Source: an uncultured Actinomycetes bacterium
GTDB taxonomy: Bacteria > Actinomycetota > UBA4738 > HRBIN12
DNA length: 64,000 nucleotides
Assembly (NCBI GenBank): GCA_963704885.1
Contig: CAVPIB010000007.1
Span: forward strand, 96,001-160,000
Direction of reading: 5' to 3'
The notes under the pieces are model-generated. The model saw only the letters and a program-made list of their open reading frames with translations, was not told the origin of the DNA and searched no databases. A program made the position numbers and the translations under genes. Positions 32,667 through 49,259 of this stretch are shown in pieces; position 1 is the stretch's first letter; the number at the start of each line of letters is the position of its first letter.

Positions 32667-34343
32667 ATGGCAGACGATCGTCCCCGGAGCTGGGAAGTCA
32701 CGGAGGGGCCACAACGCGCACCGGCACGCGCGATGCTCCGCGCCGTCGGGTTCTCCGAGGAAGACTTCGGCAAGCCGCAGATCGGGGTCGCGTCGTCCTG
32801 GAACGAGGTCACGCCCTGCAACTACCACTTGGACAAGTTGGCGGCGCTAGCCAAAGAAGGCGTGCGTCAGGGTGGCGCGGTCCCCGTCGAGTTCACGACG
32901 ATCGCCGTCTCCGACGGCATCGCGATGGGTCACGAAGGGATGAAGGCATCGCTCATCAGCCGCGAGGTGATCGCTGATTCGGTGGAGCTCATGATGCACG
33001 CGGAGCGATTCGACGGGCTCGTGGGGATCGCCGGATGCGACAAGTCCGAGCCGGCCATGTTGATGGCGATGGCCCGGTTGAACCTGGCCTCGGTGTACCT
33101 GTACGGAGGCACGATCCTCCCCGGCACGTATCGAGGTCGCGACATCACGATCCAGGACGTGTTCGAGGCGGTCGGCGCGCACAACAGCGGAACGGTGAGC
33201 GACGACGAGCTTCTGCAGATCGAGCGAGCGGCCTGCCCCACCACCGGTTCGTGCGCCGGCATGTATACGGCGAACACCATGGCGGCGGCGGCCGAGGCGC
33301 TCGGCATGTCTCTCCCCGGCGCGGCCTCACCTCCCGCCGTGGACTACCGCCGCGAGGTCCTGGCCCGTGAGTCGGGCATACGTGCCGCAGGGCTCCTCTC
33401 CCAGGACGGTCCGCGCCCTCGTGACATCCTGACCAAGGCAGCATTCGAGAATGCGATCGCGGTCGTGATGGCGCTCGCTGGATCTACCAACGCGGTGCTG
33501 CATCTGTTGGCGATCGCCCATGAGGTGGACGTTCCGCTGGAGCTCGACGATTTCGACCGGATCTCGCGGGCGGTTCCCCATCTCGTCGACGTGCGGCCCG
33601 CGGGGAAGTTCGTCATGTCGGACCTCGATCGCGTCGGGGGTGTTCCGGTGGTGATGAATGAGCTGCTCGACGCCGGTCTGCTCGACGGCGATGCGATCAC
33701 GGTCACCGGCAAGACCATCGCCCAGAACCTGAAGTCGATCGCCCCCCCCGCGCCCGACGGCACCGTCGTCCACGCGATCGCGGAGCCGATCCACCCCACG
33801 GGCGGCACGGCCATCCTCCGAGGTTCGATCGCCCCCGACGGCTCGGTCATGAAGATCGCGGGGGCCGAGGGCGCCGTGTTCCGCGGAACGGCGCGCCCGT
33901 TCGATTCGGAGCAGGACGCTTTCGCAGCGCTCACGGCTGGTCGCATAGGTCCCGGCGACGTGATCGTGATCCGCTACGAGGGACCCAAGGGTTCACCCGG
34001 CATGCCCGAGATGCTCGCCGTCACCGCGGCGGTGGCCGGCGCCGGGCTGGGCAAGGATGTCGCTCTCATCACGGACGGCCGGTTCAGCGGCGCCACCAAG
34101 GGGTTCTCGGTGGGCCATATCGCGCCGGAGGCGTTCGTAGGCGGCCCGATCGCGCTGGTGAACGACGGCGATCAGATAGTGATCGATGCCGATGCGCGCC
34201 GGATCGATGTGATGGTCGATCAGCCCACGCTGGCCGAGCGCCGAGCGGCGTGGACGGCGCCCCCACCTCGCTACACCACCGGTGCCCTTGCGAAGTACGC
34301 GAAGCTGGTCGGATCGGCCGAGCACGGGGCGGTGACGGGATGA
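32667..34343 (+). CDS. ilvD: Dihydroxy-acid dehydratase
   Basis: [59 protein letters not shown]. Confidence 0.96.
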
Positions 34344-34355
34344 CGACGGGATGAC
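34334..34355 (+). repeat. 11-bp tandem duplication at the ilvD/thrC junction
   Basis: gacgggatgac-gacgggatgac. Confidence 0.8.
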
Positions 34356-35598
34356 CTCCAAGATCACCTCCCCCCAGGCGTTGCAGTGCCGTGAGTGCGG
34401 CCAGCAGTACGCCGTCGAAGCCCTGACGATCTGCGAGGAATGCTTCGGGCCACTCGAGCCCGCCTACGACCTGCAATCGATCGACGGCGAGGTCTTCCGC
34501 AAACAGGCTGAGTCCGGTCCGCGAACGCTCTGGCGCTACGAGTCGCTGCTGCCGGGCGGGCCGACCATCGAGCGCGTCGACTTGGGTGCCGGGTTCACAC
34601 CGTTGCGCCGGGCCGACAACCTGGCTGCGCGCATGGGCCTGGAGACGCTCTGGATCAAGGACGACTCCGTCAACCCGTCGAACTCGTTCAAGGACCGCGT
34701 GGTGTCGATCGCCGTGACGATGGCACGCGAGTTCGGCTTCGAGGCGGTCTCGTGCGCGTCCACCGGCAATCTGGCGAACGCCACCGCGGCCCATGCCGCG
34801 AAGGCGGGCATGGACTGCTACGTCTTCGTCCCCGATGACCTGGAGCGCGCGAAGATCCTTTCGACCGAGGCGTACGGCGCGAAGGTCGTGGCCGTCAAGG
34901 GCAACTACGACGAGGTGAACCGACTCTGCAGCGAGGTCGCGGACGCCCTCCCGTGGGCGTTCGTGAACGTGAACATGCGTCCGTACTACGCCGAGGGATC
35001 GAAGAGCCTTGGGTTCGAGACTGCTGAGCAGCTCGGCTGGCGGCTGCCGGATCACGTGGTGGTTCCGATCGCGAGCGGCGCGCTGCTGACCAAGATCCAC
35101 AGGGCGTTCAGCGAGCTGATCGCCGTGGGTGCCGTGGACGAGAAGCCCTACCGGGTGAGCGGTGCTCAGGCCGAGGGGTGCTCACCGGTCGCTCGCGCGT
35201 TCATCGACGGAGCCGACGACGTGCGGCCCATGAAGCCCGATACGATCGCCCGGTCGCTCGCGATCGGCGCTCCCGCCGACGGTTTCTACGCTCTGCAAGT
35301 GAGCCGCAAGACCGGCGGCTCGATCGGCCTGTGTCCCGAGGAGGAGATCGTCGACGGCATCCGGCTGTTGGCCGAAACCGAGGGTGTGTTCACCGAGACC
35401 GCAGGCGGCGTGACCATCGCGGTTCTGAAACGCATGGTCGACGAGGGTGTGATCCGCCCGGAGGAAGAGGTCGTCGCCTACATCACCGGCAACGGCTACA
35501 AGACGATCGACGCGCTGGAGGGGCGGATCGAGCCTAGCTTCCACGTCTCGCCCGACCTGGACGAGTTCCTCGACGCCCTGGAGCATCGGTCGGCCTGA
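34351..35598 (+). CDS. thrC: Threonine synthase(-like), with N-terminal CxxC..CxxC
   Basis: CRECG..CEECFG, NPSNSFKDR, CASTGNLA, YYAEGSK, TETAGG, ITGNGYKT. Confidence 0.85.
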   Translation: MTSKITSPQALQCRECGQQYAVEALTICEECFGPLEPAYDLQSIDGEVFRKQAESGPRTLWRYESLLPGGPTIERVDLGAGFTPLRRADNLAARMGLETLWIKDDSVNPSNSFKDRVVSIAVTMAREFGFEAVSCASTGNLANATAAHAAKAGMDCYVFVPDDLERAKILSTEAYGAKVVAVKGNYDEVNRLCSEVADALPWAFVNVNMRPYYAEGSKSLGFETAEQLGWRLPDHVVVPIASGALLTKIHRAFSELIAVGAVDEKPYRVSGAQAEGCSPVARAFIDGADDVRPMKPDTIARSLAIGAPADGFYALQVSRKTGGSIGLCPEEEIVDGIRLLAETEGVFTETAGGVTIAVLKRMVDEGVIRPEEEVVAYITGNGYKTIDALEGRIEPSFHVSPDLDEFLDALEHRSA

Positions 35599-36253: not shown

Positions 36254-36718
36254 CTACGCGAGCACCCGGAAGATGAATTCGTACCCGGAGCCGTCCGGGA
36301 GGGCCTTGATCTGCATGCTGCCCCCCGCTCCCTTGTACTTGCCCCGACCACCTGTGATCACCATGACGCTGTCGTGGCTGTCGAAGAACGGTCCCTCGAT
36401 AGTGATGGCGCCGCCCTTGAGGAAGTTGATCCAGCGGCACTCCCAGGAACCGTCGGTCGGGTTGATGCGGATGCAGTCTCCCTGGTCGCGTCCCACCTTT
36501 TCGACGTTCGCCTCGTCGTAGAGCTCGTTGGCGAACGTGAGCAGATCGCCGGTGGAGTCGCCCGTAGCACCCAGATCGATCACGATGTCGGTGGTGGCGC
36601 GCTCGATCACGTGGATAACCGTGGCCTTACGGCGGTGGCCGGTTCCGGCCTGCGCGACATAGCCGGCCACGAGCACGGCGACGATGGCGACGGCCGCGAT
36701 CATGGAGTTCTTCCGCAT
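36254..36718 (-). CDS. Secreted allene-oxide-cyclase/dirigent-like beta-barrel protein
   Basis: Signal peptide; GDSTGDLLTFANELYD, VGRDQGDCIR, WEC.W, ITGGRGKYKGAGG; RBS AAGGAG. Confidence 0.75.
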   Translation of the reverse strand: MRKNSMIAAVAIVAVLVAGYVAQAGTGHRRKATVIHVIERATTDIVIDLGATGDSTGDLLTFANELYDEANVEKVGRDQGDCIRINPTDGSWECRWINFLKGGAITIEGPFFDSHDSVMVITGGRGKYKGAGGSMQIKALPDGSGYEFIFRVLA

Positions 36719-36843
36719 GGCGTGTCTCCTTCCGGATGGGTGGCCCAGCTTGACAGCCGGACCCGGTTCCCGTCTAGCGCCTCATCTTGCATTCCTGATC
36801 GGAACAGAACAAACTCGCTCCCGTTCGGTCACGGGCGTCAGCC

Positions 36844-37677
36844 GTGTCGGAAGGGGGCAGGAAGCCGTTGGAGCAGCCGTTGCCGGCGGAACGGCATCGC
36901 AGGATCCTCGAGGTCGTGCGTGAGCGCCATGCCGTAAGGGTGTCCACGCTGTCCGAGCTCCTGGGCGTCTCGGAGGTGACCGTCCGCCGAGACCTCGAAG
37001 ATCTCGAGCATCGAGGACTGTTGGAGCGGACCCACGGAGGAGCTATCTCCACCCAGCGGCTCGGGGCAGAGCCGGCCTACCTCGAGGCCTCCCACAGGTG
37101 CGCTCCGGAGAAGATCTCGATCGGTCGAACCGCGGCGGAGTTCGTTCACGCCGGGGACACGGTCTTCCTGAACGGCGGAACGACCACGCTGCAGGTATTC
37201 CGGCATCTTGAAGGGGTCGATGTCCGCGTCGTCACGAATCATGTCGGGATCGCCTCCGAGGCGGCCGATCGCGATATCGATCTGATCGTCATCGGTGGGG
37301 AGTATCGAGCTCCGTCCAACTCCTGCGTGGGGAGCTTCGCCACCCAGATGTTGAGGGGCGTCTTCGCCTCTCGCTCGCTCATCGGCGTCGAAGGGCTCAG
37401 CATCCGCTCCGGGCTGACCACGCCCGCGGCACCCGAAGCCGAGGTCGCCCGCGTGATGATCGAACAGACGCAGGGCCCGGTGATCGTGGTCGCCGATTCA
37501 AGCAAGATCGGGACGATCGCAGACTTCTCGATCGCCCCGCTCGATGTCATAACCATGCTAGTGACCGATGCAGGTTTGGACGACGCGTACCGCGACGAGC
37601 TCGACGCCGTCGGTGTCGAAGTCGTGATCGCCGGCCGTGCGCCGATCCGAGCAGGAGCGGGCCGTGGAGAAGGCTGA
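36844..37677 (+). CDS. DeoR/GlpR-family transcriptional regulator
   Basis: ERHRRILE..LGVSEVTVRRDLEDL..RTHGGA; LNGGTTT; VVTN; VADSSKIG. Confidence 0.93.
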   Translation: MSEGGRKPLEQPLPAERHRRILEVVRERHAVRVSTLSELLGVSEVTVRRDLEDLEHRGLLERTHGGAISTQRLGAEPAYLEASHRCAPEKISIGRTAAEFVHAGDTVFLNGGTTTLQVFRHLEGVDVRVVTNHVGIASEAADRDIDLIVIGGEYRAPSNSCVGSFATQMLRGVFASRSLIGVEGLSIRSGLTTPAAPEAEVARVMIEQTQGPVIVVADSSKIGTIADFSIAPLDVITMLVTDAGLDDAYRDELDAVGVEVVIAGRAPIRAGAGRGEG

Positions 37678-38428
37678 GTTCGAAGCCGAGGCCGTCCGGC
37701 TCGTGGACGCCGCGAATGCGCAAGGGATCACGCTGCGGCTCCTCGGCGCGCTCGCGTTCGCGACACGGTGTCCCGATCACGCCTATCTGCAGGATCAACT
37801 CGGGCGGGTCTACACCGATATCGACTTCGGCGGATACGGGAAGCAGGTGCGCCAGATCCAGGAACTGCTCGCGAGTCTCGGCTACGTCGAGGACACCGGG
37901 GTCTACGTCGAGTCTCAGGGCACGCGCCTGATCCTGGAGCACCCCGAGACGAAGCTTCACCTGGACGTGTTCCTGGATCGGCTCGACTTCTGTCACACCG
38001 TCTCGTGGAACGGCAGGCTGGAGATCAACGACCGGACCATCCCGCTCGCCGAGATGCTGTTGCAGAAGATGCAGATCGTAGAGATCAACGAGAAGGACCT
38101 GATCGACACGATCATGCTCTTGCTCGAATACCCGCTCGGGGAGGACGACGACGGCCGGGTCAACATGGCGCTCGTGGCCGACATCTGCGCCAAGGATTGG
38201 GGATGGTGGCGCACGCTCACGATGAACCTGGACAAGGTGCGGCAGATGGCAGCGAGCTATCCCCAGCTCACCGACGAGCAGAAGGACCGCGTGGCCGATC
38301 AGGTGACCGCGGCGCTCGACCGGATCGAGGCCACGCCCAAGAGCTTGGGATGGAAGCTGAGGAGCCGCGTGGGCGACCGCAAGAAGTGGTACCAGGACGT
38401 CGGTGAGCTGGCGCCGGAGGTGGGCTGA
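37664..38428 (+). CDS. Pol-beta-superfamily nucleotidyltransferase-like protein of unknown function
   Basis: RLLGALAF...YTDIDF...LDVFLD catalytic-triad pattern; KMQIVEINEKD; overlaps neighbours on both sides. Confidence 0.6.
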   Translation: MEKAEFEAEAVRLVDAANAQGITLRLLGALAFATRCPDHAYLQDQLGRVYTDIDFGGYGKQVRQIQELLASLGYVEDTGVYVESQGTRLILEHPETKLHLDVFLDRLDFCHTVSWNGRLEINDRTIPLAEMLLQKMQIVEINEKDLIDTIMLLLEYPLGEDDDGRVNMALVADICAKDWGWWRTLTMNLDKVRQMAASYPQLTDEQKDRVADQVTAALDRIEATPKSLGWKLRSRVGDRKKWYQDVGELAPEVG

Positions 38429-39429
38429 TGCCGGTCTTCAAGAGGCGCGGGACGTCTAAGGGCACTCCGACCCGCCTGTTCTACGCGTGCGACATCCACG
38501 GCTCCGAGCCCACGTACCGGAAGTTCCTGAACGCAGCGAAGTTCTACGAGGTCGACGCGCTGATCTTCGGCGGAGACCTGATGGGCAAGCTGCTGGTCCC
38601 GATCGTGCGCGACAGCGGCGGGACCTACCGTGCCAGGCTCCAGGGGCAGAACCATCACATCACGTCGGACGAGGAGATGGCGCAGCTCAAGAAGGTGCTC
38701 CAGACGCTCGGGTTCTATTGGCAGGAGATGGATCCCGAGGAGTACGAGAGTTACGCAGGGAACCAGGATCGCATCGATCAGCTGTTCGACGTCCTGGCCA
38801 AGGAGCGACTGGCGGAGTGGGTCGTGCTCGCCGAGGAGCGGCTGAAGGATTCGCACGTGCGCGTGTTGCTATGCGGCGGGAACGACGACACGGACGAGGT
38901 CCTGACGGCCTTGGATGAGACGGCACAGGATCGCGTGATGAACGCGGAGAACCGCGTGGTGCCCGTCGACGACGAACACGTCGTCGTCACGATCGGCTAC
39001 TCCACACCGACGCCGTGGGATACACCGCGCGAGCGGAGCGAGGACGAGATCGCCGAGGTGATCAAGACGATCATGGCCGAGGTGCCGGATCCGTCGCGGG
39101 CGGTCTTCAACTTCCACTGCCCACCGCTCGACTCGGGGCTGGATACCTGTTTGAAGTTGGACGCGTCCGTGTGGCCTCCGACGCCCGCGCTGCAGAACGG
39201 CCAGGCGATCTACTACGGAGCCGGGTCCCAGGCCGTGACCGACGCGCTCACCGAGTACCAACCGACCGTCGGCATGCACGGCCACATCCACGAATCCCGC
39301 GGGGTCACGAACTACGGGCGGACCCTTGCGCTCAATCCGGGGAGCGAGTACGGAGAGGGGGTGTTGAGGGGACTCATCGTCACCATCCGAGGAGGAGACG
39401 TCGTCGGGCATCAATTCACGTCCGGGTAG
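38428..39429 (+). CDS. Calcineurin-like metallophosphoesterase (Icc-related)
   Basis: ACDIHGS, GGDLMGK, GGNDD, FHCPP, HGHIHES, NPGSEY. Confidence 0.85.
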   Translation: MPVFKRRGTSKGTPTRLFYACDIHGSEPTYRKFLNAAKFYEVDALIFGGDLMGKLLVPIVRDSGGTYRARLQGQNHHITSDEEMAQLKKVLQTLGFYWQEMDPEEYESYAGNQDRIDQLFDVLAKERLAEWVVLAEERLKDSHVRVLLCGGNDDTDEVLTALDETAQDRVMNAENRVVPVDDEHVVVTIGYSTPTPWDTPRERSEDEIAEVIKTIMAEVPDPSRAVFNFHCPPLDSGLDTCLKLDASVWPPTPALQNGQAIYYGAGSQAVTDALTEYQPTVGMHGHIHESRGVTNYGRTLALNPGSEYGEGVLRGLIVTIRGGDVVGHQFTSG

Positions 39430-39470
39430 GCCCGGCCCGGAGCAGCGCGCGAGACACGAAGGGAGGGGGA

Positions 39471-41105
39471 ATGGCAGAGGCAGTCGCTCCACAGGTCTTC
39501 ACCAGGCGCGCATCCGGACTCGTCCGGGTGATGTCGCCGTACTCCGCGTTCATCTACAACATCCTGACGATGGGGGTGATCTTCCCCTGGACCTACCTGT
39601 GGGCGCCCACCGCGTTCCAAGGGTCGAACCTCGTCCTCGGGATCGGGTTCGCCTTCCTGTTCGAGTTGCCGATCGCGCTGGCCTATGTGTGGCTCGCGAC
39701 CGCGCTTCCTCGGTCGGGGGGTGACTACGTGTTCCAGAGCCGCGTATTCGGCGGCGGCTTCGGGTTCACCGTGGTGTTCGCTTTCTTCGTCGTGTGGATC
39801 CTGCAATGGGTCGCGCTCTCGGGCTGGTTGCTCGCGACGCTCGGCCTGGCGCCGACGTTCATCGGCCTCGGGGTCACGACCGGCATCGATGCGTTCACCG
39901 ACTTCGGGACCTGGGCCGCGTCGACCAACGGCATCATCATCATCAGCGTCGTGAACGCGCTGGTTGCGATGGTCTTGCTGGTCACGGGGTTCAAGAACTA
40001 CGTCCGGTTCCAGTTCGTGATGTGGTACGCGATCCTGATCTCGTTCGGGATCGTCTTGCTGCTGTTCCTGTTCACGGATCCGGGGGCGGCCCAAGGGAAG
40101 CTGGACGGGTTCGCCGCGAGCGTCGACGGCGTGTCGGGATTCTTCGCCTCGGCGAAAGCGGCCGCCGCGGAAGCCGGGGTGAACTTCAGCCCACCGTTCT
40201 GGCTGTTCGGCACCTTGATGGTGGCGCCGATCGCGTGGACGAGCCTTCAGTGGGCCACGTACTCGGTGGAACAGGGTGGGGAGATCAAGAACGCCCACGT
40301 GTTCCGGAACCAGCTGTTCATCATCGTGGGCTCGCTGGCCACGGTGGCCGGGCTGCTCATCATCCTGGCGCTCGCCATGCGGAGTGGGTTCGGGCAGGAC
40401 GGGATCCTGGTTGCCTCATCCGGCTACTGGTACGGCGTCGGGGGTGCGACGATCGGCGGGAACTACCTCTTCCCGAACTTCATCGCCATGGGCCTGACCG
40501 GGAGCTGGGTGATCGTCTTATTGATCGGGTTCGGGTTCATCTTGAACTCGTTCCAGATCGTCTGTAACTGCTACATCGGGACGACGCGGATCATGGTGGC
40601 GCAGGGCTTGGACGGCCTGCTGCCAGACTGGTTCGCGCGCGTGCACCCGAAGTGGAAGACCCCGATGAACGCGCACATCGCGTACTTCCTCGCGGCACTG
40701 CCGGTGATCTATGGGTTCAACAAGATCGGCAGCTGGACGCGATGGACCCTGGGTGTGACGTTCGCGAACGGGGCGGTGATGGTGCTGTCCGCGTTGGCGG
40801 CGGCCCTCTTGCCGTATCGGGCGAAGCAGTTGTATGAGGCGTCGCCCGGCGCCCGGTACAAGATCGGGAACGTCCCGATGGTCACGGTGTTCGGGATCTT
40901 GGGGTTCCTGCTGGGCGGCTTCATGGTGGTGTCCTTCCTGTTCGTGAAGGACCTGGGACTCGCGTTCTCGAACGATGCGCTGCCGTACTGGATCGTGCTC
41001 GGTACGGCCGCGTTCGGCCTGATCGTGTATCTGGTCATGAAGTCGGTCCAGTCACGCAAGGGCATCAAGGTCGAGTACGCCTTCCAGGAGATCCCGCCCG
41101 AATAG
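39471..41105 (+). CDS. APC-superfamily amino acid/amine permease
   Basis: FTRRASGLVR, ALPRSGGDYVFQSR, GGEIK, RIMVAQGLDGLLP, about 12 TM, terminal FQEIPPE; RBS GGAGG. Confidence 0.88.
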   Translation: MAEAVAPQVFTRRASGLVRVMSPYSAFIYNILTMGVIFPWTYLWAPTAFQGSNLVLGIGFAFLFELPIALAYVWLATALPRSGGDYVFQSRVFGGGFGFTVVFAFFVVWILQWVALSGWLLATLGLAPTFIGLGVTTGIDAFTDFGTWAASTNGIIIISVVNALVAMVLLVTGFKNYVRFQFVMWYAILISFGIVLLLFLFTDPGAAQGKLDGFAASVDGVSGFFASAKAAAAEAGVNFSPPFWLFGTLMVAPIAWTSLQWATYSVEQGGEIKNAHVFRNQLFIIVGSLATVAGLLIILALAMRSGFGQDGILVASSGYWYGVGGATIGGNYLFPNFIAMGLTGSWVIVLLIGFGFILNSFQIVCNCYIGTTRIMVAQGLDGLLPDWFARVHPKWKTPMNAHIAYFLAALPVIYGFNKIGSWTRWTLGVTFANGAVMVLSALAAALLPYRAKQLYEASPGARYKIGNVPMVTVFGILGFLLGGFMVVSFLFVKDLGLAFSNDALPYWIVLGTAAFGLIVYLVMKSVQSRKGIKVEYAFQEIPPE

Positions 41106-41123
41106 GACGGGAGGCGCAACGCA

Positions 41124-41155
41124 CGATGGGGCGGGGCTTGGGCCCCGCCCCATCG
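41124..41155 (+). terminator. Perfect 14-bp GC-rich hairpin after the permease (terminator or mRNA-stability element)
   Basis: cgatggggcggggc-ttgg-gccccgccccatcg; no U-tract. Confidence 0.65.
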
Positions 41156-41173
41156 CTCATCCGAAAGGTAGAT

Positions 41174-43594
41174 GTGGATCGCGCTCGGGCCGTCGTGATC
41201 GGTGGCGGGGTCACCGGTTGCAGCATCCTTCTGCACCTGGCAGAGGCGGGATGGACGGATGTCCTGCTCCTGGACAAGGGTGAGCTGACGAGCGGCTCCA
41301 CGTGTCACGCGGCCGGGCTCGTCACGATGTTCAACCCGTCGCCCACGATGATGCGGTTCCGGCGCTACTCGATCGAGCGATACCGGGAGCTCGGCGTATT
41401 CGAGACGGTCGGCGGATTGAGGTTCGCTTCGAGCCGCGACCAGTTCATGGAGCTGCAACGCGGGGTGTCTCGGGCGAAGGGCATCGGACTCGATGTCGAG
41501 CTCTTGTCGGCGGATGAGGCGCGCGCGTTGATGCCGGCCGCGTCGCCCGAAGAGCTACACGGCGCCGTCTACGTCCCCGGCGACGGATACCTGGATCCAC
41601 ACGGCGCCACCCATGCCCTGGCGGCGGCGGCGCGCTCGCTCGGAGCCACGATCGAGACGGGTGTCCGCGTGACGGGCATCGAGCTGTCGGAACGACGCGA
41701 GGTGACGGCCGTCCTCACCGACCGCGGTCGGATCGAGACCGAGGTCGTCGTCAACGCGGCGGGGATCTGGGCGCCGCGTGTCGCGGCCATGGTCGGCGCG
41801 TTCGTTCCCTCTACACCGGTCGACCACCAGCACGTCGCGCTGAAGGCGGTCCCCGGATCCGAGTTGCCGAACGACATGCCGTGCTTCCGCGACCCGGACA
41901 ACCTGGTTTACGGCAAGGCCGAGTCGGGCGGGATCCTATTCGGTGGGTACGAGCCCGATCCCGTCGCGCGCTGGGTCGACGGTGTTCCATGGGAGCACGG
42001 AGGCCGCGCGCTTCCCGCCGACATGGGACGGTTCGAGCAACTGATGCAGGGTGCGGCGCGAAGGTTCCCGTTCGTCGCCGATGCTGAGATCGTGAAGCTC
42101 GTCTGCCATCCCGACGCGATGACGCCCGATGCCAACCCTCTGCTGGGACCGATGCCCGGTGTGCGTGGCTTCTTCATGGCGGCGGGGCTCTCACTGAACG
42201 GGTTCGGGGGCGCCGGCGGCATCGGCAAGACCGTGGCCGAATGGGTGACCGCCGACGAAACGGAGCTCGACGTCTTGTCCTACCGGGCGTGGCGCTTCGG
42301 GCATGTCTATCGCGACCCTTCTTGGGCCGCCGAGGTTGCCCGCGAGACCTACCGCTACTACTACGAGTTGCGCTATCCGTTCGATCAGGACGAGTTCGGA
42401 CGACCCAGACGCGAGAGCCCCTTGATGTCCCGGCTCCAGGACGCCGGTGCGGTCTTCGGCGCGAAGAACGGATGGGAGCGGACCGAATACGTGGCGCCGG
42501 GGGAGCCGTGGCGGCGTGCGGGAGCCGACCAGCGAGCCTGGGGATGGACCGAGCCGCCGTTCTACATGCGCGTGGCGCAGGAGCACCGGGCCGTCCGCGA
42601 GCGCGTCGGGTTGTTCGACATGACGTCGTTCGGGAAGATCGACGTCTCTGGCCGGGACGCGCTTGCGGTGCTCGAGCGCGTGTCGGACAACCGGATCGAT
42701 CGTCCGATCGGAAGCGTCGTCTACACGCAGTTCCTTGAGCGACGCGGCGGGATCGTCGCCGATGTGACGGTGACCCGGCTCGGGAAGGATCGGTTCCGAG
42801 TGATCACAGGCTCTGGGACGATCGACGCCGACCTCGGGTGGATCCGGGCGAACTTGCGGGATGGTGAAGACGTTGAGCTCCTCGACGCGACGGAGGGTCT
42901 TGCGGTGATCGGTCTTTGGGGACCTGCGGCTCGCGCCGTGCTGGAGGCCGTCAGTGACGACGATGTCTCCGGCGGCGGGTTCCCATTCATGCAAGCTCGC
43001 AAGATCGTGGTCGGGGGCGCGCGAGCTTTCGCGCAACGCGTGACCTACGTGGGGGAGCTGGGGTGGGAGCTGTACGTGGAGCCTGAGTGGGCGACCCAGG
43101 TATGGGACCGACTGAGGCAGGCAGGAGCGCCGCACGGTATCGCCATCGCCGGGTATCGCGCGCTCGACTCGCTCCGGATCGAGAAGGGCTACCGGTACTT
43201 CGGGACGGACCTAACGATGCTGGACGATCCCTTCCAGGCGGGACTTGCGGCGTGCGTGCGTCTGGAGAAGGAGTCATTCGTGGGTCGCGACGCCCTCGTG
43301 GCGAAGCTCGAAGCCGGAGCGCCGACGCGTCGCCTCCGGACGCTCCTCGTCGGAGCGGAGGCCTACGTCCCGATCTACGGCGGAGAGGCGGTTCTGGTCG
43401 ATAGGGGCGTTGTCGGGCGGCTCCGCAGCTGTGCCTACGGGTTCACGGTCGGGCGGAACATCGCATACGCCTACCTCCCGACGGAGCTCGGGCCGGGTGA
43501 CCGGGTCGATGTGGAAGCCTTCGGAGAGCCGATCCCCGCGGAGGTGGCCGACGATGTGTCCGTCGATCCCGCGGGTGAGCGGATCCGTGCCTAG
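41174..43594 (+). CDS. GcvT-family FAD/folate amine dehydrogenase (dimethylglycine-dehydrogenase-like), copy A
   Basis: VIGGGVTG, LTSGSTCHAAG, FRDPD, GWER, DMTSFGKI, RVTYVGELGWELY, LRIEKGY. Confidence 0.88.
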   Translation: MDRARAVVIGGGVTGCSILLHLAEAGWTDVLLLDKGELTSGSTCHAAGLVTMFNPSPTMMRFRRYSIERYRELGVFETVGGLRFASSRDQFMELQRGVSRAKGIGLDVELLSADEARALMPAASPEELHGAVYVPGDGYLDPHGATHALAAAARSLGATIETGVRVTGIELSERREVTAVLTDRGRIETEVVVNAAGIWAPRVAAMVGAFVPSTPVDHQHVALKAVPGSELPNDMPCFRDPDNLVYGKAESGGILFGGYEPDPVARWVDGVPWEHGGRALPADMGRFEQLMQGAARRFPFVADAEIVKLVCHPDAMTPDANPLLGPMPGVRGFFMAAGLSLNGFGGAGGIGKTVAEWVTADETELDVLSYRAWRFGHVYRDPSWAAEVARETYRYYYELRYPFDQDEFGRPRRESPLMSRLQDAGAVFGAKNGWERTEYVAPGEPWRRAGADQRAWGWTEPPFYMRVAQEHRAVRERVGLFDMTSFGKIDVSGRDALAVLERVSDNRIDRPIGSVVYTQFLERRGGIVADVTVTRLGKDRFRVITGSGTIDADLGWIRANLRDGEDVELLDATEGLAVIGLWGPAARAVLEAVSDDDVSGGGFPFMQARKIVVGGARAFAQRVTYVGELGWELYVEPEWATQVWDRLRQAGAPHGIAIAGYRALDSLRIEKGYRYFGTDLTMLDDPFQAGLAACVRLEKESFVGRDALVAKLEAGAPTRRLRTLLVGAEAYVPIYGGEAVLVDRGVVGRLRSCAYGFTVGRNIAYAYLPTELGPGDRVDVEAFGEPIPAEVADDVSVDPAGERIRA

Positions 43595-43604
43595 GAGCTG
43601 ATGG

Positions 43605-44507
43605 ATGGGTCCGAGCATCGAGCAGGTGGTCGAGCGGGTCTCGCTCTGGAGCCCAGACGAGGTCTCTGTCTCGGAGCTTTCGGGCGGTCTCACCAACCAG
43701 AACTTCCTCGTCACGCGCGGGGACCAACGGTTCGTCGTCCGGATCCCGGGCGCATCCACCGAGCTTCTGGCCGTCGACCGCCGCAACGAGCGCCACAATG
43801 CCGAGGCGGCTGCGACCACCGGCGTGTCGCCACGGGTGCTCGAGTACCTGCAGGAGTGGTCGGTGATGGTGCTCGAGTTCATCGACGGGGAGACCATGTC
43901 GCCCGGGCGCCTGCGGGAGCCCTCGATGCCGGCCCGCATCGCTGCGTCACTCCATCGTCTGCACGCCGGCCCGCCGTTCTTGCATGACTTCGACATGTTC
44001 CGGATCACCGACTACTACCTCGGGATCATCGCGGGGCGCGACGTGCGGATCCCCGGTGGCTTCCGCGATCGGATGGACACCGTCGCCGACATCGAACGCG
44101 TCCTCGCCGTCAACGCCCGACCTCCCGTGCCGTGTCACAACGATCTTCTCGCCGAGAACTACATCGACGACGGGCGGCAGCTCTGGATCATCGACTTCGA
44201 ATACAGCGGGAACGACGATCCGTGCTTCGAGCTGGGCGACACCGCACAGGAGTGCGGCTACGACCGTGACCAGAAGGCGGCCCTCTGCGCCGCTTACTTC
44301 GGCCGTGAGGATCCGGTACAACTCGCGCGGATGGAGCTATACGCGATGATGGCCGACGTCGGCTGGACGCTCTGGGCGGCTATCCAGGCGCAGATCTCCA
44401 CGATCGACTTCGACTTCTGGGGTTGGGCCGTCGAACGGTGGGACAGGGCCACCGCGGTGATGGATGGCGGTGGGTTCGATCAGCTCCGCAACGCCGCGAC
44501 GTCGTGA
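43605..44507 (+). CDS. Choline/ethanolamine-kinase-like phosphotransferase, copy A
   Basis: LSGGLTNQNF, CHNDLLAENY (Brenner motif), IIDFEYSG. Confidence 0.85.
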   Translation: MGPSIEQVVERVSLWSPDEVSVSELSGGLTNQNFLVTRGDQRFVVRIPGASTELLAVDRRNERHNAEAAATTGVSPRVLEYLQEWSVMVLEFIDGETMSPGRLREPSMPARIAASLHRLHAGPPFLHDFDMFRITDYYLGIIAGRDVRIPGGFRDRMDTVADIERVLAVNARPPVPCHNDLLAENYIDDGRQLWIIDFEYSGNDDPCFELGDTAQECGYDRDQKAALCAAYFGREDPVQLARMELYAMMADVGWTLWAAIQAQISTIDFDFWGWAVERWDRATAVMDGGGFDQLRNAATS

Positions 44508-44557
44508 CGACGCCGATGTTGACGGGACGCGTGCCTCGGGGGACCCTGGCTTCGTTC

Positions 44558-44857
44558 ATGAAGGTCGTTGCCACCCCTGAGGTCGTCGAGTTCATCCGCC
44601 AGCGCGGCGGGGAGATCTTCGTGTGGTCCGTGACCATGGAGTACGGCTACGCGCGAGGGAGCGTCTTCGTGCTTGAGGCATCGGTGGAGTCACCCGGCGC
44701 CGAACGGGGATTCGTGCGGTTCGAGGGCGAGGGCATCACGGTCTTCTACGAGCCTGGGGAGCGTGGGACGCCCGACTCGCTACACCTGACGCTTCGCGGG
44801 CGCGCTCGCAAGCGGGTCGCCGCCTACTGGAACGGCCACAGCTACGGGACCGAGTGA
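44558..44857 (+). CDS. Hypothetical protein (about 99 aa)
   Basis: Good codon bias; MKVVATPEVVEFIRQRGG..AAYWNG. Confidence 0.6.
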   Translation: MKVVATPEVVEFIRQRGGEIFVWSVTMEYGYARGSVFVLEASVESPGAERGFVRFEGEGITVFYEPGERGTPDSLHLTLRGRARKRVAAYWNGHSYGTE

Positions 44858-44869
44858 GTCGAGCGTCCG

Positions 44870-46153
44870 TCAGGGCTCGAGCGCCAAGGCGTCGACGAGC
44901 CGGTCGGTCCCGCCGGTTCGCAGGAGCGCCTTCGCCCGGTCGGCCGGCCCCTCCCGGCGCTCGAGCCGGTCGCGGATCGGGTCGAGCATCGGCTCCTCGC
45001 CGAGCCCTCGGCTGCCCAGGCCCGCGGCGGCCAGATCGGCCAGCGTCGACAAGAAGCCCGGCGACGGTTCCTCGGCCTTGATGCCGTGGCCGACCGCCCG
45101 TCGCCGATAGGCGAGGAGCGCACGCCACCCTTCGACGCCCGGGAACGTCTCGTCGAGGTACGAAGCGACCTCGGCGTTCGCTTCGACCAAGCCGACCGAC
45201 AGGGCCGCCGCCGCGAACGAGGCCTCGGGCTGTTGGCAGGCCGGCCGGATCTCGAGCGTGCCGAGGCGGGCACGCGGGCGTGCGCTCGGCCATAGGTAAT
45301 GCTCGTGGTAGAGCCATTCCTCGAGGTCGGGGCCCCGCCGGGCGAGTCGCTTGGCGAAAGGCATCGCCGGCTCCACGAATCCCCCTCGACCGTCGGGCAG
45401 GACGAGTGCCCGGAAGCCCACCGTCCAGCGCACGTAGTCCTCGGCGTCGACGAACCGCCTGGGCACCGCCCCGTTGCGGAAGGGCTCTCCGGACACGCGC
45501 GCGGACAGGGCCTCACGTCCCGACGCCGCGCCGGGCCGGCCGCCGTAGATCGACGAGTTCGCACACAGGGCGATCAGCGCGCCGGAGCAACCGTTCATGG
45601 CGTTCATAGCGCGCACCAGCTCGTCGCGTCCGACGTCCACGTGCACCTGGTCGCTCGCTGTCACCGTCCACCGGAGCCATCCGAGGCCTATCGCGCGCAC
45701 GAGCGCCTCGTAGCGGACCTTCGGCGTCAGTAGGTCGTTGGCCGGTGGCGTCCGGGGCTGGATGCCGTAGCCGAGCAGGCGGTATCCCGCTTCCCGGGCA
45801 ACGCCGCCGACCAAGCGCAGCGCGGGGACGAGGTCCTCCGCGAGCTCTGTCAGCGATCGGCGCGGTCCGACCCCGATCTCAACCGTGCCTTTGCCGACCT
45901 CAGCCAGGCAGAACCACCGGCGCGCCTCGACGCCGATCAACAGACCCGATGGGTCGTGCATGGCGGGCGCGTCCGTCGCATACAGCAGTGGGTTCCACAG
46001 GTCCGACGAGTCGCCGGCGCGGCCGTTCGCGTCGACGAGCGGAAGTTCGGCCTCGCGTCCCACCGATCGTGCGCCACTCCGTCGCGCGGGGAACCGTGAG
46101 ACGAAGCCTTCCGCGAGAGCCGCGATCCCCGCGTCAAGTCGCGATGTCGGCAT
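44870..46153 (-). CDS. Glutamate-cysteine ligase (GCS2)-family carboxylate-amine ligase
   Basis: VGREAE, EVGKGTVE, GYGIQP, TASDQVHVD, ALCANS, RPR..TLEIRPACQQ. Confidence 0.75.
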   Translation of the reverse strand: MPTSRLDAGIAALAEGFVSRFPARRSGARSVGREAELPLVDANGRAGDSSDLWNPLLYATDAPAMHDPSGLLIGVEARRWFCLAEVGKGTVEIGVGPRRSLTELAEDLVPALRLVGGVAREAGYRLLGYGIQPRTPPANDLLTPKVRYEALVRAIGLGWLRWTVTASDQVHVDVGRDELVRAMNAMNGCSGALIALCANSSIYGGRPGAASGREALSARVSGEPFRNGAVPRRFVDAEDYVRWTVGFRALVLPDGRGGFVEPAMPFAKRLARRGPDLEEWLYHEHYLWPSARPRARLGTLEIRPACQQPEASFAAAALSVGLVEANAEVASYLDETFPGVEGWRALLAYRRRAVGHGIKAEEPSPGFLSTLADLAAAGLGSRGLGEEPMLDPIRDRLERREGPADRAKALLRTGGTDRLVDALALEP

Positions 46154-46158
46154 CGTCG

Positions 46159-46824
46159 TCAGAACGAGGCGTGGTCGCCGGCGGAGGTGACCAGCTGCAC
46201 CGTGGCCTCCTCCAGCAGCGCGGCATCCGGCCCCAATCGGAACGCGTTCAGCTCGCAGTTCAGGATGTCGAACTCGAGGGCGTGGTACGGGTCCTGCCCG
46301 CGGACGGCAGCGTGGAGCTGCTGCAGGAAGTTCTGATGCGAGAAGACCGCCACGTGCCTCCCGCCGTGTCGCTCGAGCAGGGCGTCCAGGGACTTATGCG
46401 CACGATCGTGGAGCGCGTCGAAGCTCTCGCCACCCGGTGGGTTCAGCGAGTACCGCATGTGCTCGATCTGGAGGTACTTCACGTGTGGGAAACGCTCGGG
46501 CACCTCGCTCGGATCGATCCCTTCCATCTGCCCGAACGACCGCTCCGTGCACCCTTCGTCGATCTCCAGGCGCTCGTACGGCCATCCGGTCACGAGCTCG
46601 GCCGTCTCGACGGCCCGCACGAGCGGGGAGGTGACGACCACGTCGAGCGGCGTACCGGCGAACCGGGAGCCTGCCTCCCGCGCCTGCGCGCGACCCTCGT
46701 CGATCAAAGGGACGTCGATCCTGCCGCCCACCCGCTTATCGCGGTTCAGCTCGGTTAGACCGTGACGGACCGTCATCACGACCGTCTGGCCTGCCTCGGC
46801 CTCGAAAGGGAGCATGCCGCTCAC
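46159..46824 (-). CDS. Histidine phosphatase family protein
   Basis: VRHG, TSPLVRAVETA, ERSFG, PGGES, VFSH. Confidence 0.88.
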   Translation of the reverse strand: MSGMLPFEAEAGQTVVMTVRHGLTELNRDKRVGGRIDVPLIDEGRAQAREAGSRFAGTPLDVVVTSPLVRAVETAELVTGWPYERLEIDEGCTERSFGQMEGIDPSEVPERFPHVKYLQIEHMRYSLNPPGGESFDALHDRAHKSLDALLERHGGRHVAVFSHQNFLQQLHAAVRGQDPYHALEFDILNCELNAFRLGPDAALLEEATVQLVTSAGDHASF

Positions 46825-49259
46825 GCGCGGATCCGCTCGCCCCTCGGGTCCCAGAGCGGATCGTTCGCGACGACCGATGGGACGAGCTCACCGAACACTT
46901 CGATCTCGCACGCGGTTCCGGCGACCGCCATCTCGATCGGGAGGTACGCGTAGGCGATCGACGCGCCGACCGTGTAGCCGAGGCCGCCGCTCGTGACCCT
47001 CGATACGACGCGACCGCCGTGGGACACGGGTTCGTTGCCCAGGGTCATGGCTCTCCCGTCGGCCAATGTTAGGCACGAGAGCTTGCGCGTGAGGCCACCG
47101 GCCATGGCGCGCTCGAGCGCTTCGTTCCCGATGAATCCCGGCACGTCCATGCGGACCGCGAAACCCAATCCCGCCTCGAACGGGTGCTCCTCTGGCGTGA
47201 TGTCCGCGCTCCATGCGCGATAGCCCTTCTCAAGGCGGAGCGTGTCGATCGCCCGGTAGCCAGCAGGGATCACCCCGTGCGGTTCGCCTGCGGCCATCAG
47301 CGTGTCCCAGAGCGCGCCGGCGAACTCGACCTTGGGATATAGCTCCCATCCCAGCTCGCCGACGTATGTGACGCGCAGCGCCAGACAGGGCACGTTACCC
47401 ACCACGATCTCGCGCGCCGTCATATAGGGGAAGCCGTCGTTCGACACGTCGTCGGTCGTCGCGGACGAGAGGATGTCGCGTGCCCTCGGACCCCACAGGC
47501 CGAAGCAACCCATCGTGCCTGTCACGTCGCGGACCTCCACGCCGTTGAACCCACCTTCGCCGATCTGTTTGCGGATCCACCCCAGATCGTGGTTCCCGAA
47601 CGCCGTGCCGGTGACGAGGAGGTAGCGGTCCTCGTCGAGGCGCGTGGCCGTCAGGTCGCACTCGACACCGCCGCGCGAGTTCAGTAGCTGCGTGTAGACC
47701 ACCGAGCCGGGTTCGCGGTCGACGTCGTTCGCGCAGAGCCGCTGCAGGAACGGGGTCGCCCCGTCACCGCTGATCTCGATCTTCGCGAAGCTCGACTCGT
47801 CGAAGAGGCCCGCGCGCTCCCGTGTGGCGATGTGCTCCGCCGGGATCGCGCTCGACCAGTGCTCGCCGGCCCATCCGCGCGGCCGCGATCCTTCGAGCGA
47901 TGGATCCTCGTTCGAGCTGAACCAGTTGGCGCGTTCCCAGCCCGATTTCTCGCCGAACTCCGCTCCGAGCTCCTGCAGTCGACCGTACGTCGGAGCCGTC
48001 TTGAGCGGTCTTCCCGCCTGCCGCTCCTCGCCCGGGTAGTGGATGTCGTAGTAAGTGGCGTACACCTCGTAGGCGCGCTCACGCGCGTAGTTCCGCGATC
48101 GGTACTGCGGGCCGAACCTCCGGATGTCCATCTTCCATAGGTCGAACTCCGGCTCGCCGTGCACGATCCAATCGGCCATGACCTTGCCGATCCCACCGGC
48201 GCCCGCGATCCCGTGGGCGCAGAAGCCGGCTGCCACGAAGAACCCGCGCACGTCGGACTCGCCCAAGATGAACTCGCCGTCGGGCGTGAACGCCTCGGGT
48301 CCGTTGATCATGGTCACGACCTCGGCCGTTTGCAGGACGGGGACGAGGCCGAACGCGTTCTCGGCCAGCTGCTCGAAGCGTTCCCAGTCTTCGGGCAGCA
48401 GCTGGTGGTTGAAGTCCGCGGGCGGGCCTTCCTGCACCGCCCACGTGGCCGGGTTCCGTTCGTACCCACCCATCACCAGGCCGCCGCCCGCCTCGCCGCG
48501 GAAGTACACGAGCCTGTCGGGGTCTCGCATGGTCGGCAGGTCGACGCTTCCACCCTCTACCGGTTTCGTCAGCAGGTACTGATGCGCGAACGGCACCACG
48601 GGCACCTCGACGCCGGCCAGATGCCCGATCTGGTTGGCGTACATCCCTCCGGCGTTCACCACGATGTCGGCGGTGATCGAGCCGTGTTCCCGAGTGATGA
48701 CGCCGCGAACACGACCGTCCCGGACGTCGATGCCGGTCACCCGCGTGCTGGGCCGGACATCGGCGCCTCGTCGCCGGGCGCCCTCCGCTAACGCGAGCGT
48801 GAGGTTGCTGGGGTCGAGATGGCCGTCGGTCGGGATGAAGGCGGCTCCCTGCACCCCCGCCGGATCGAACAGTGGGAACCGCTGGTGCGCGTCCTCGGTG
48901 GAGATGACCTCGAGGGGCAGTCCGAACGTGTGTGCCCAGCCCTCCTGGCGGCGGAGCTCCTGCATGCGTTCGTCGGTCGAGGCGAGCCGGAGCGACCCCA
49001 CCTCGTGCCATCCCGGATCCACGCCTGTCTCATGCGCCAATCGCCGGTAGAGCTCGGCCGAGTACATCATCATCCGCGTCAGTGAGACGCTCGATCGTAG
49101 CTGTCCGACCAGCCCCGCCGAATGGAAGGTGGATCCCGAGGTGAGCTCGTTCCGGTCCACGAGCAGTATGTCTTGCCAGCCGAGCTCGGCGAGGTGATAG
49201 GCGATGCTCGCGCCGGCGACGCCGCCGCCGACCACGATCGCCCGGAACGACTCGGTCAT
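46821..49259 (-). CDS. GcvT-family FAD/folate amine dehydrogenase, copy B
   Basis: VVGGGVAG, LTSGSTFHSAG, MRDPD, GPEAFTPDG, GWERANWF, RVTYVGELGWELY, LRLEKGY; ATGA overlap with the kinase. Confidence 0.9.
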   Translation of the reverse strand: MTESFRAIVVGGGVAGASIAYHLAELGWQDILLVDRNELTSGSTFHSAGLVGQLRSSVSLTRMMMYSAELYRRLAHETGVDPGWHEVGSLRLASTDERMQELRRQEGWAHTFGLPLEVISTEDAHQRFPLFDPAGVQGAAFIPTDGHLDPSNLTLALAEGARRRGADVRPSTRVTGIDVRDGRVRGVITREHGSITADIVVNAGGMYANQIGHLAGVEVPVVPFAHQYLLTKPVEGGSVDLPTMRDPDRLVYFRGEAGGGLVMGGYERNPATWAVQEGPPADFNHQLLPEDWERFEQLAENAFGLVPVLQTAEVVTMINGPEAFTPDGEFILGESDVRGFFVAAGFCAHGIAGAGGIGKVMADWIVHGEPEFDLWKMDIRRFGPQYRSRNYARERAYEVYATYYDIHYPGEERQAGRPLKTAPTYGRLQELGAEFGEKSGWERANWFSSNEDPSLEGSRPRGWAGEHWSSAIPAEHIATRERAGLFDESSFAKIEISGDGATPFLQRLCANDVDREPGSVVYTQLLNSRGGVECDLTATRLDEDRYLLVTGTAFGNHDLGWIRKQIGEGGFNGVEVRDVTGTMGCFGLWGPRARDILSSATTDDVSNDGFPYMTAREIVVGNVPCLALRVTYVGELGWELYPKVEFAGALWDTLMAAGEPHGVIPAGYRAIDTLRLEKGYRAWSADITPEEHPFEAGLGFAVRMDVPGFIGNEALERAMAGGLTRKLSCLTLADGRAMTLGNEPVSHGGRVVSRVTSGGLGYTVGASIAYAYLPIEMAVAGTACEIEVFGELVPSVVANDPLWDPRGERIRA

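Follow-up and report, generated by a model that had tools for sequence, protein, structure and literature searches.

In the amtB-glnK-glnD system an ammonium channel is encoded with a PII protein and with a Pol-beta-type uridylyl/adenylyl-transferase that also has a removing activity. The minimal nucleotidyltransferase MntA is reported to adenylylate a protein, HepT (PMC7641770, PMC11586414), and PptH, a metallophosphoesterase, to hydrolyse a Ser-O-phosphodiester of carrier proteins (PMC8557913). The present analysis concerns a 64,000-nucleotide stretch of DNA, hereafter the window, from an uncultured Actinomycetes bacterium (GenBank assembly GCA_963704885.1, contig CAVPIB010000007.1, positions 96,001 to 160,000 of the forward strand), which is GC-rich (about 67% G+C) and comes from a 3.0 Mb genome that is 97% complete. 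Three adjacent plus-strand genes in the window are predicted to encode a 254-residue nucleotidyltransferase (open reading frame A, ORF A; 37664-38428), a 333-residue metallophosphoesterase (38428-39429) and a divergent 544-residue permease of the APC superfamily (39471-41105). As judged from sequence comparison and gene order, the conserved unit is this triad, and it is suggested, at a probability of roughly one in three, that ORF A and the phosphoesterase are dedicated writer-eraser partners acting on the permease and not on its cargo.

The likeness of the triad to amtB-glnK-glnD is one of logic only, a transporter being encoded in both cases with putative or established nucleotidyl-adding and nucleotidyl-removing activities that would control the uptake of nitrogen compounds. 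The locus differs from that system in that no PII or GlnD-type gene lies within 36254-44507, the remover would be a separate metallophosphoesterase rather than an HD domain, and the proposed target is the permease itself, with its own enzyme pair for each permease paralogue. It differs from MntA-HepT and PptH in that neither of these is known to be linked to a transporter or paired with the other. Open-access full text yielded no paper on the combination of metallophosphoesterase, nucleotidyltransferase and permease genes.

The initial annotation had described a coupled pair of nucleotidyltransferase-like and metallophosphoesterase genes; the linkage of the two stands, whereas the two-gene limit does not, as the APC permease belongs to the unit as well. 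Across a sample of 401 Actinomycetota genomes (including two flagged as unpublished, G018 and G120, with one triad each), 52 carried ORF A, 50 the phosphoesterase and 53 the permease type, the last scored at E≤1e-30. Both enzymes occurred in 50 genomes, all of which also carry the permease type when the tables are compared, and in none of the 401 was the phosphoesterase present without ORF A. The two genomes with ORF A only are a 210-contig assembly (G310) and one in which a broken fragment lies beside a permease fragment (G271). At the 67 places where ORF A was located, the phosphoesterase lay within 300 nucleotides (nt) on the same strand in 54, at 0.3-6 kb in seven, and was not found on the contig in six; the corresponding figures for 70 permease places, which are lower bounds since the best three permease candidates per genome were scored, are 51 within 300 nt, 10 at 0.3-3 kb, and nine with none on the contig. 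A phosphoesterase homolog was likewise adjacent in 28 of 30 public loci found through ORF A, with the permease following in at least 23; the contigs of the remaining two end at or just past ORF A. The order of the genes varies (ORF A-phosphoesterase-permease, phosphoesterase-ORF A, phosphoesterase-permease-ORF A, and permease-ORF A-phosphoesterase), and the permease subfamily was found only alongside the two enzymes. Two decayed copies were also observed in Actinomycetota, namely the G271 fragment, which has an internal stop and abuts the permease fragment (G271:C1:1069031-1069785), and an ORF A in three pieces beside an intact phosphoesterase and permease (G376:C3:555323-556072).

The association extends to a second phylum. 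ORF A was present in 64 of 301 Chloroflexota genomes, and among the best 30 loci the phosphoesterase lay within 1.5 kb in 11 and within 8 kb in 11 of the other 19; it was absent from view in eight, two of these being short contigs. Five Chloroflexota genomes in which ORF A stands apart were compared for copy number, and the counts of ORF A, phosphoesterase and permease were equal in each of them (1/1/1 in four, 3/3/3 in one). The phosphoesterase and permease are side by side in all five, and in two they share a contig with ORF A at a distance of 7.6-10 kb. One such arrangement (G419; L125:206-8546 and G419:C2:8582-11236) consists, on a single strand, of phosphoesterase, permease, dimethylglycine dehydrogenase (DMGDH), choline-kinase (ChoK)-like gene, an unidentified gene, MttB-family methyltransferase, aldehyde dehydrogenase and ORF A. 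Another locus (L128:380-8747) carries the ChoK-like, Fe-ADH, DMGDH, aldehyde dehydrogenase and ORF A genes.

ORF A and the phosphoesterase each have thousands of relatives, which establishes both as real genes. ORF A itself matched no Pfam or NCBIfam family at E≤0.01, and searches against the sequences of solved structures gave nothing usable when direct and only weak rows with a profile. Its relatives comprise 4079 proteins at E≤0.001 among 5307 candidates, or 2090 representatives of 50%-identity clusters, 457 of them at E≤1e-30. In an alignment of 87 members with 32-85% identity to the window's protein, H111, Q137, D148, W179, T184, W230, R233, G237 and W242 are invariant, and G28, D52, D54, D101 and several Arg/Lys residues are conserved in at least 90%. 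A catalytic role is presumed for G28, D52 and D54 (nt 37817-37825) and D101 (nt 37964-37966). G28 is followed by Ala, giving GA in contrast to the GS or GG of the hG[GS] motif. The AlphaFold model (predicted local distance difference test score, pLDDT, 96; predicted template-modelling score 0.92) places G28 after a strand (24-27), D52 and D54 on a second (52-57) and D101 on a third (99-104). All Foldseek matches listed for this model are nucleotidyltransferases, with a best E of only 1.4e-3. VIA-align, which is independent of Foldseek, returned eight chains at Z≥8, every one a nucleotidyltransferase: ANT(2'')-Ia (AadB; 4xje; Z 12.4, root-mean-square deviation 3.4 over 154 residues), MenT1 (8an4; Z 11.9), a fungal nucleotidyltransferase-like protein (Z 11.2), LnuA (4wh5; Z 10.5), JHP933 (Z 10.5), TglT (6j7n; Z 9.0), MenT4 (6y56; Z 8.3) and TM1012 (Z 8.3). 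MntA was not among the best 50 VIA-align matches listed. Together, the model, the structural matches and the conservation of G28, D52, D54 and D101 bear out the Pol-beta fold and Asp triad that had been claimed, and ORF A is predicted to be a nucleotidyltransferase of minimal Pol-beta-type fold from a family without a curated model.

The nearest solved folds, ANT(2'')-Ia and LnuA, share with ORF A the arrangement of a minimal catalytic domain at the N-terminus and a helical domain after it, as well as the Gly...DxD...D pattern. The identity to them is 14-20%, however, and the profile match to the 4xje sequence reaches an E of only 0.35; ORF A is 70-100 residues longer and has its own conserved C-terminal helical domain (W179, T184, N188, K226, W230, R233, W242 and Y243). 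Its context is also not one of antibiotic resistance, the gene always occurring with the permease and phosphoesterase. The MenT/AbiEii (DUF1814) toxins belong to the same fold class, but the neighbors of ORF A are DeoR, phosphoesterase and permease genes, without a cognate antitoxin. The only sequence family reached by ORF A relatives is PF14907 (NTP_transf_5, 'uncharacterised nucleotidyltransferase'), which was matched weakly by 58 of the 87 relatives scanned singly (E≤1; best E 9.2e-8); the window's protein scores 13.2 bits (E 0.066) and thus lies below the 31.2-bit cut-off, and the family is itself without known function: open-access full text yielded no paper on what it does, although PF14907 is named in one paper on phosphonate biosynthesis. 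Five of the 87 relatives matched PF08843 (AbiEii) weakly, short of membership. Only three longer ORF A proteins were found. In one of them, P0392 (metagenome, 447 residues), an ORF A homolog is continued by the initial half of a phosphoesterase homolog (41% identity, residues 3-176), which may be either a natural fusion or an artefact of gene calling or assembly; P0393 has no phosphoesterase part. Long open frames in the genome tables were rejected as fusions, being chance read-through in other frames of GC-rich DNA. A protein-atlas cluster of look-alikes has 817 members, 59% of them archaeal and mostly from Candidatus Bathyarchaeota.

Enzymes of the calcineurin-like metallophosphoesterase superfamily carry five motifs, DxH, GD, GNH[DE], H and GHxH. 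In the window's phosphoesterase these correspond to CDIHGS (D22 and H24; DxH at nt 38491-38499), GGDLMGK (residues 48-54; GDLMGK at nt 38572-38589), GGNDD (residues 150-154; GNDD at nt 38878-38889), FHCPP (H230) and HGHIHE (residues 283-289, up to nt 39294). Across 41 family members of 35-90% identity, D22-x-H24, G49-D50, G151-N152-D153-D154 (with Asp in place of His), H230 and G285-H286-x-H288 are all invariant, as are G48, G53 and K54. The GDLMGK and GNDD motifs, which had been noted as variants, are thus present, but they are no local oddity: GGDxxGK and GNDD are hallmarks of the family. Its relatives number 6442 among 8000 candidates. The window's protein falls below the Pfam cut-offs for PF00149 (17.2 against 21.5 bits), PF12850 (24.8 against 27 bits) and PF14582 Metallophos_3 (18.8 against 28.2 bits); of the 41 relatives, 37 match PF00149 at E≤0.01 and 13 match PF14582 (best E 7.1e-8). 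Against the sequences of solved structures, the direct search gave nothing usable and the profile search weak rows only.

The phosphoesterase model (pLDDT 91.4) has an alpha/beta insertion that forms a subdomain of roughly residues 55-145, in which G95, Y97 and W131 are invariant. Its best relatives by structure are aq_1956 (2yvt; Foldseek E 3.3e-10, VIA-align Z 23.9 over 235 residues) and TT1561 (1uf3; Z 22.4 over 218 residues), both of the Metallophos_3 type and both functionally uncharacterised; nothing relevant on either was found in the open-access literature. The identity to these two is 16-17%, and they are set apart from the window's protein by its extra subdomain of about 90 residues and its invariant GDxxGK and GNDD. 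The neighbors that come after them are phosphodiesterases and nucleases, including MPPED2 (Z 19.1), Mre11/SbcD (Z 17.6-18.4), Rv0805 (Z 17.9) and, at rank 10, GpdQ (2dxl; Z 16.9), which is level with Mre11, Rv0805 and Lmo2642; a fish protein resembling ADP-ribose/CDP-alcohol diphosphatases (2nxf; Z 15.1) and PptH (6unc; Z 14.9) follow. No protein phosphatase of the PPP type is among the best 50 VIA-align matches listed. The assignment of the partner as a metallophosphoesterase is borne out by motif invariance and structural comparison, and on this basis it is predicted to be a real enzyme that keeps all metal-binding motifs.

The permease is a clear member of PF13520 (56.1 bits against a cut-off of 27), without an NCBIfam equivalog and with no relative among solved structures by sequence at E≤0.01. 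In distant triads it is 22-30% identical to the window's protein, compared with 33-44% for ORF A and 36-43% for the phosphoesterase, and it is less similar than either enzyme in 15 of 15 such triads. Both of its termini carry family patterns. The N-terminal tail follows F-x-R-x-[AS]-[ST]-G-[LF]-x-[RK], which reads FTRRASGLVR in the window (residues 10-19; 39498-39527, plus strand), with the Ser/Thr at position 15; the pattern matches 39 of 39 triad permeases, including the one from Chloroflexota, whereas a six-frame translation of the whole genome (6.03 million residues) contains it just twice. At the very end of the protein, after G-[IL]-[DK], the pattern [ILV]-P-[PVI]-[EDV] matches 38 of 39, the sole miss being the L010 permease with its aberrant end; in the window the protein ends in EIPPE followed by the stop (41088-41102, plus strand). 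Neither motif is present in the other APC-like ORF of the genome, and the C-terminal one is absent from a non-triad AA_permease in locus L073, of which the C-terminus was viewed. In proteins of the APC fold both termini are expected to face the cytoplasm. The Ser/Thr at position 15 is a candidate modification site.

The surroundings of the triad change from place to place. In the window's clade the triad precedes dehydrogenase and kinase genes, and in Chloroflexota this set is met again, with DeoR, ChoK-like and DMGDH-like genes plus Fe-ADH, aldehyde dehydrogenase and MttB-family methyltransferase genes. Up to three or four paralogous triads occur per genome, beside different pathways: the neighbors of paralogues include glutamine-synthetase-like genes, formamidase/acetamidase, aminotransferases, arginase-family genes, a nitrilase-type hydrolase and amine oxidase, as well as GMC oxidoreductases, aldehyde dehydrogenases, an FGGY kinase with SDR and DeoR genes, BtpA, creatinase/M24 peptidase and a deacetylase. 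The regulators also differ, with AsnC, LacI or PucR in other triads where the window has DeoR. Throughout these differing surroundings the conserved residues of both enzymes are unchanged; the triad is the constant part and the catabolism of nitrogen compounds the variable part. A context that is metabolic rather than defensive, as the initial annotation had it, is supported by these catabolic neighbors and by PADLOC, in which ORF A had no match and the phosphoesterase had only a 40-residue match to a generic motif.

Among the three candidate targets, the permease, a metabolite and a signaling nucleotide, the permease is favored only tentatively. The argument that the enzymes would act on it, and not on a cargo that changes, is drawn from the matching distributions of the three genes, from the constancy of the enzyme residues against changing pathways and permease sequences, and from the conserved terminal motifs, which bear hydroxyl and acidic residues. 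According to this proposal, the permease would import an amine, in the window's island probably choline or a related methylated amine in view of the neighboring genes. ORF A would use a nucleoside triphosphate to place a nucleoside monophosphate on a hydroxyl at the cytoplasmic face of the permease, switching transport on or off, and the best candidate for the acceptor is the invariant Ser/Thr in the N-tail motif F-x-R-x-[AS]-[ST]-G-L-x-R. The phosphoesterase would then cleave the resulting phosphodiester and reset the permease, and one enzyme, or each of them, may dock on the conserved C-terminal IPPE tail. MntA and PptH, as reported, offer a precedent for each of the two reactions, and the retention of all metal-binding motifs, together with the diesterase-like character of the nearest characterised structures, fits an eraser role. 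A more specific version, in which reversible nucleotidylylation of the permease's own cytoplasmic tail is the direct switch and the triad is a portable, self-regulating uptake cassette serving many nitrogen-compound pathways in bacteria and, if the protein-atlas lead holds, possibly in archaea, is put forward with greater reserve. Complex prediction for ORF A and the phosphoesterase, using both alignments, scored 0.00 in both runs, which carries no weight either way on binding.

Several points weigh against a switch on the permease. The enzymes whose structures come nearest to that of ORF A have small molecules (ANT(2'')-Ia, LnuA) or tRNA (MenT) as substrates, and not proteins; neither enzyme has a sensor domain able to set the balance between writer and eraser; and a regulatory pair would not obviously need a separate copy for each permease paralogue. 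The ORF A of Chloroflexota often closes a choline-type catabolic operon and is then several kb distant from the permease. The argument from the divergence of the permease is weak, since membrane proteins generally diverge faster. As to the termini, both patterns were written after viewing the same alignment in which their matches are counted, the G-L-x-R part of the N-tail motif is presumably the generic segment that precedes transmembrane helix 1 in APC transporters, and a crude hydropathy scan does not settle the number of helices or the cytoplasmic position of the ends. Finally, some contexts hint at phosphate esters, with DeoR/GlpR, FGGY kinase, GlpA-like dehydrogenase, PlsY and histidine phosphatase genes.

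These last hints lead to an explanation that is itself doubtful yet nearly as likely as the permease switch, namely that the enzymes process the cargo. The permease would import zwitterionic amines linked through a phosphoester (glycerophosphocholine, phosphocholine or ethanolamine analogues), the phosphoesterase would split the ester in the cytoplasm, ORF A would act on the shared phosphate or polyol moiety, for example as a LicD/FKRP-like phosphotransferase or as a maker of nucleoside diphosphate-alcohols, and the variable neighboring genes would degrade the freed amine. The resemblance of the phosphoesterase to small-substrate diesterases (GpdQ, Rv0805, MPPED2 and 2nxf) fits this explanation, as does the Z of 5.9 between ORF A and FKRP, a CDP-alcohol phosphotransferase, and the tightest pair in the triad is that of phosphoesterase and permease, judged by the 51 of 70 within 300 nt. 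Regulators of the DeoR/GlpR type, to which the operon's regulator belongs, have phosphorylated sugars or polyols as known effectors. The triad of L025, from an Anaerolineales metagenome-assembled genome (MAG) of the Chloroflexota, lies between an FGGY kinase gene and GlpA-like, Pyr_redox_2 and PlsY genes; L075 has PlsY as well, and L074 an FGGY kinase together with DeoR. Glycerol-phosphate genes are, however, missing from most triad contexts, and some contexts, such as those with arginase-family and nitrilase-type genes or with amine oxidase, involve amines that have no obvious phosphoester form. A choline-kinase-like gene beside an enzyme that splits phosphocholine would make a futile pair, a nucleotidyltransferase and a hydrolase acting on one small molecule would be equally futile unless they cut different bonds, and the permease alignment shows no residues that stand out as a cargo site beyond generic APC motifs.

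It is improbable, by comparison, that the pair makes and degrades a signaling nucleotide. In such a scheme ORF A would produce a messenger (a linear or cyclic oligonucleotide, or a compound of the NpnN type) when the permease is occupied, the phosphoesterase would degrade it, and the permease would be a sensor-transporter. A synthase of nucleotidyltransferase fold with a phosphodiesterase is a common signaling design, and Rv0805 and MPPED2, to which the phosphoesterase is similar in structure, are cyclic-nucleotide phosphodiesterases, but the likeness of ORF A to known messenger synthases is structurally weak: the CD-NTase 7ljo stands far down its Foldseek list (E 0.028, probability 0.41), and the synthetase domains of Rel/SpoT reach Z 4.1-4.9. 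No conserved receptor or effector gene accompanies the triad, its regulators vary by locus (DeoR, AsnC, LacI, PucR), and cross-talk would be expected among the several parallel copies of one genome. Proteins with a CBS pair are often binders of adenosyl ligands and might be counted in favor of a messenger where they adjoin ORF A, as in two unrelated loci (L111:4368-5180 and L079:5529-5981) where a CBS-domain protein stands directly beside it. A toxin of the MenT/AbiEii kind with the phosphoesterase as antidote, in a toxin-antitoxin or defense pair that merely neighbors the permease, is suggested by MenT1, TglT/MenT3 and MenT4 among the nearest structures and by the five weak AbiEii matches, but this defense reading was rejected as highly improbable in view of the constant linkage to one permease subfamily inside catabolic operons, the lack of an antitoxin-type gene, the PADLOC result, and vertical conservation across families of two phyla in place of the patchy pattern of mobile elements. 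The residual probability falls to some explanation beyond those listed.

Both enzyme families are large, with thousands of proteins, and neither is covered by a curated model; the structures closest to the phosphoesterase are without known function. The triad reaches about one in eight of the Actinomycetota genomes sampled and about one in five of the Chloroflexota genomes sampled. The operons that hold it are concerned with choline-type and other nitrogen compounds, and its hosts include many bacteria of soils and sediments. Action on the permease would amount to a new mode of transport control and to the first physiological role for this branch of phosphoesterases; action on the cargo would make the triad a marker of phosphoester nutrients, imported in soils and sediments, of a class so far unrecognised. 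The analysis adds counts of co-occurrence across two phyla, the equality of copy numbers in genomes whose genes stand apart, and the motifs at both ends of the permease, which include a candidate target residue.

Within the window, the triad belongs to a cluster of six co-directional genes (36844-44507) separated by gaps of at most 41 nt, a spacing that points to a single operon. Scans for promoter and terminator consensus sequences in the cluster returned no sites, such scans being uninformative for so GC-rich an organism. The first gene encodes a repressor of the DeoR/GlpR family (36844-37677, plus strand; PF00455 E 8.9e-41, PF08220 E 4.3e-17), whose top NCBIfam match is GlpR, under the cut-off; a DeoR gene is upstream of ORF A in many close relatives. 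The details of the junctions were as first annotated: the DeoR gene ends at 37677 and ORF A starts with GTG at 37664, an overlap of 14 nt, while the TGA of ORF A (38426-38428) and the ATG of the phosphoesterase (38428-38430) have in common the A at 38428, within TGATG. The motifs LGALAF, TDIDF and DVFLD in ORF A, and GDLMGK and GNDD in the phosphoesterase, were likewise found as described. The GTG at 37664 has an AGGAG 9 nt upstream and gives 254 residues, the length of the closest relatives; a longer alternative beginning at GTG 37637 is possible. The permease starts with the ATG at 39471, preceded by GGAGGGGG, and a longer ORF from 39015 is an upstream read-through of the permease frame. It is followed after 20 nt by a gene for a dimethylglycine/sarcosine-dehydrogenase-like enzyme (41126-43594, plus strand; DAO, FAO_M, GCV_T and GCV_T_C domains), which is kept in close relatives and also present in the Chloroflexota islands, and after a further gap of 10 nt by the last gene of the cluster, which encodes a choline/ethanolamine-kinase-like small-molecule kinase (43605-44507, plus strand; PF01633 E 7.8e-26) and is conserved in relatives.

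The region 41126-50194 is a methylated-amine island with two DMGDH/sarcosine-dehydrogenase-like genes (41126-43594, plus strand; 46821-49403, minus strand), each adjoining a choline-kinase-like kinase gene (43605-44507, plus strand; 49256-50194, minus strand). The nearest NCBIfam model for these kinases is that of the guanitoxin N-oxide kinase GntI, below its cut-off. The minus-strand operon continues with genes for a histidine phosphatase (46159-46824) and a GCS2 carboxylate-amine ligase (44870-46153), and the presence of kinase, demethylase, phosphatase and ligase together suggests phosphorylated intermediates. Upstream of the DeoR gene and divergent from it, a small allene-oxide-cyclase/dirigent-like protein is encoded (36254-36718, minus strand; PF06351 E 1e-8), whose position is kept in many relatives. 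Directly upstream lies a pair of genes for a dihydroxy-acid dehydratase (ilvD) and a threonine-synthase-like protein (PALP; 32667-35598), and in many Actinomycetota MAGs this pair keeps its synteny with the triad. The gene at 50288-51895, on the island's edge, encodes a molybdopterin oxidoreductase of the sulfite-dehydrogenase (SorA/SoxC) type, with scores under the cut-offs, and a homolog of it adjoins the DeoR gene in L019.

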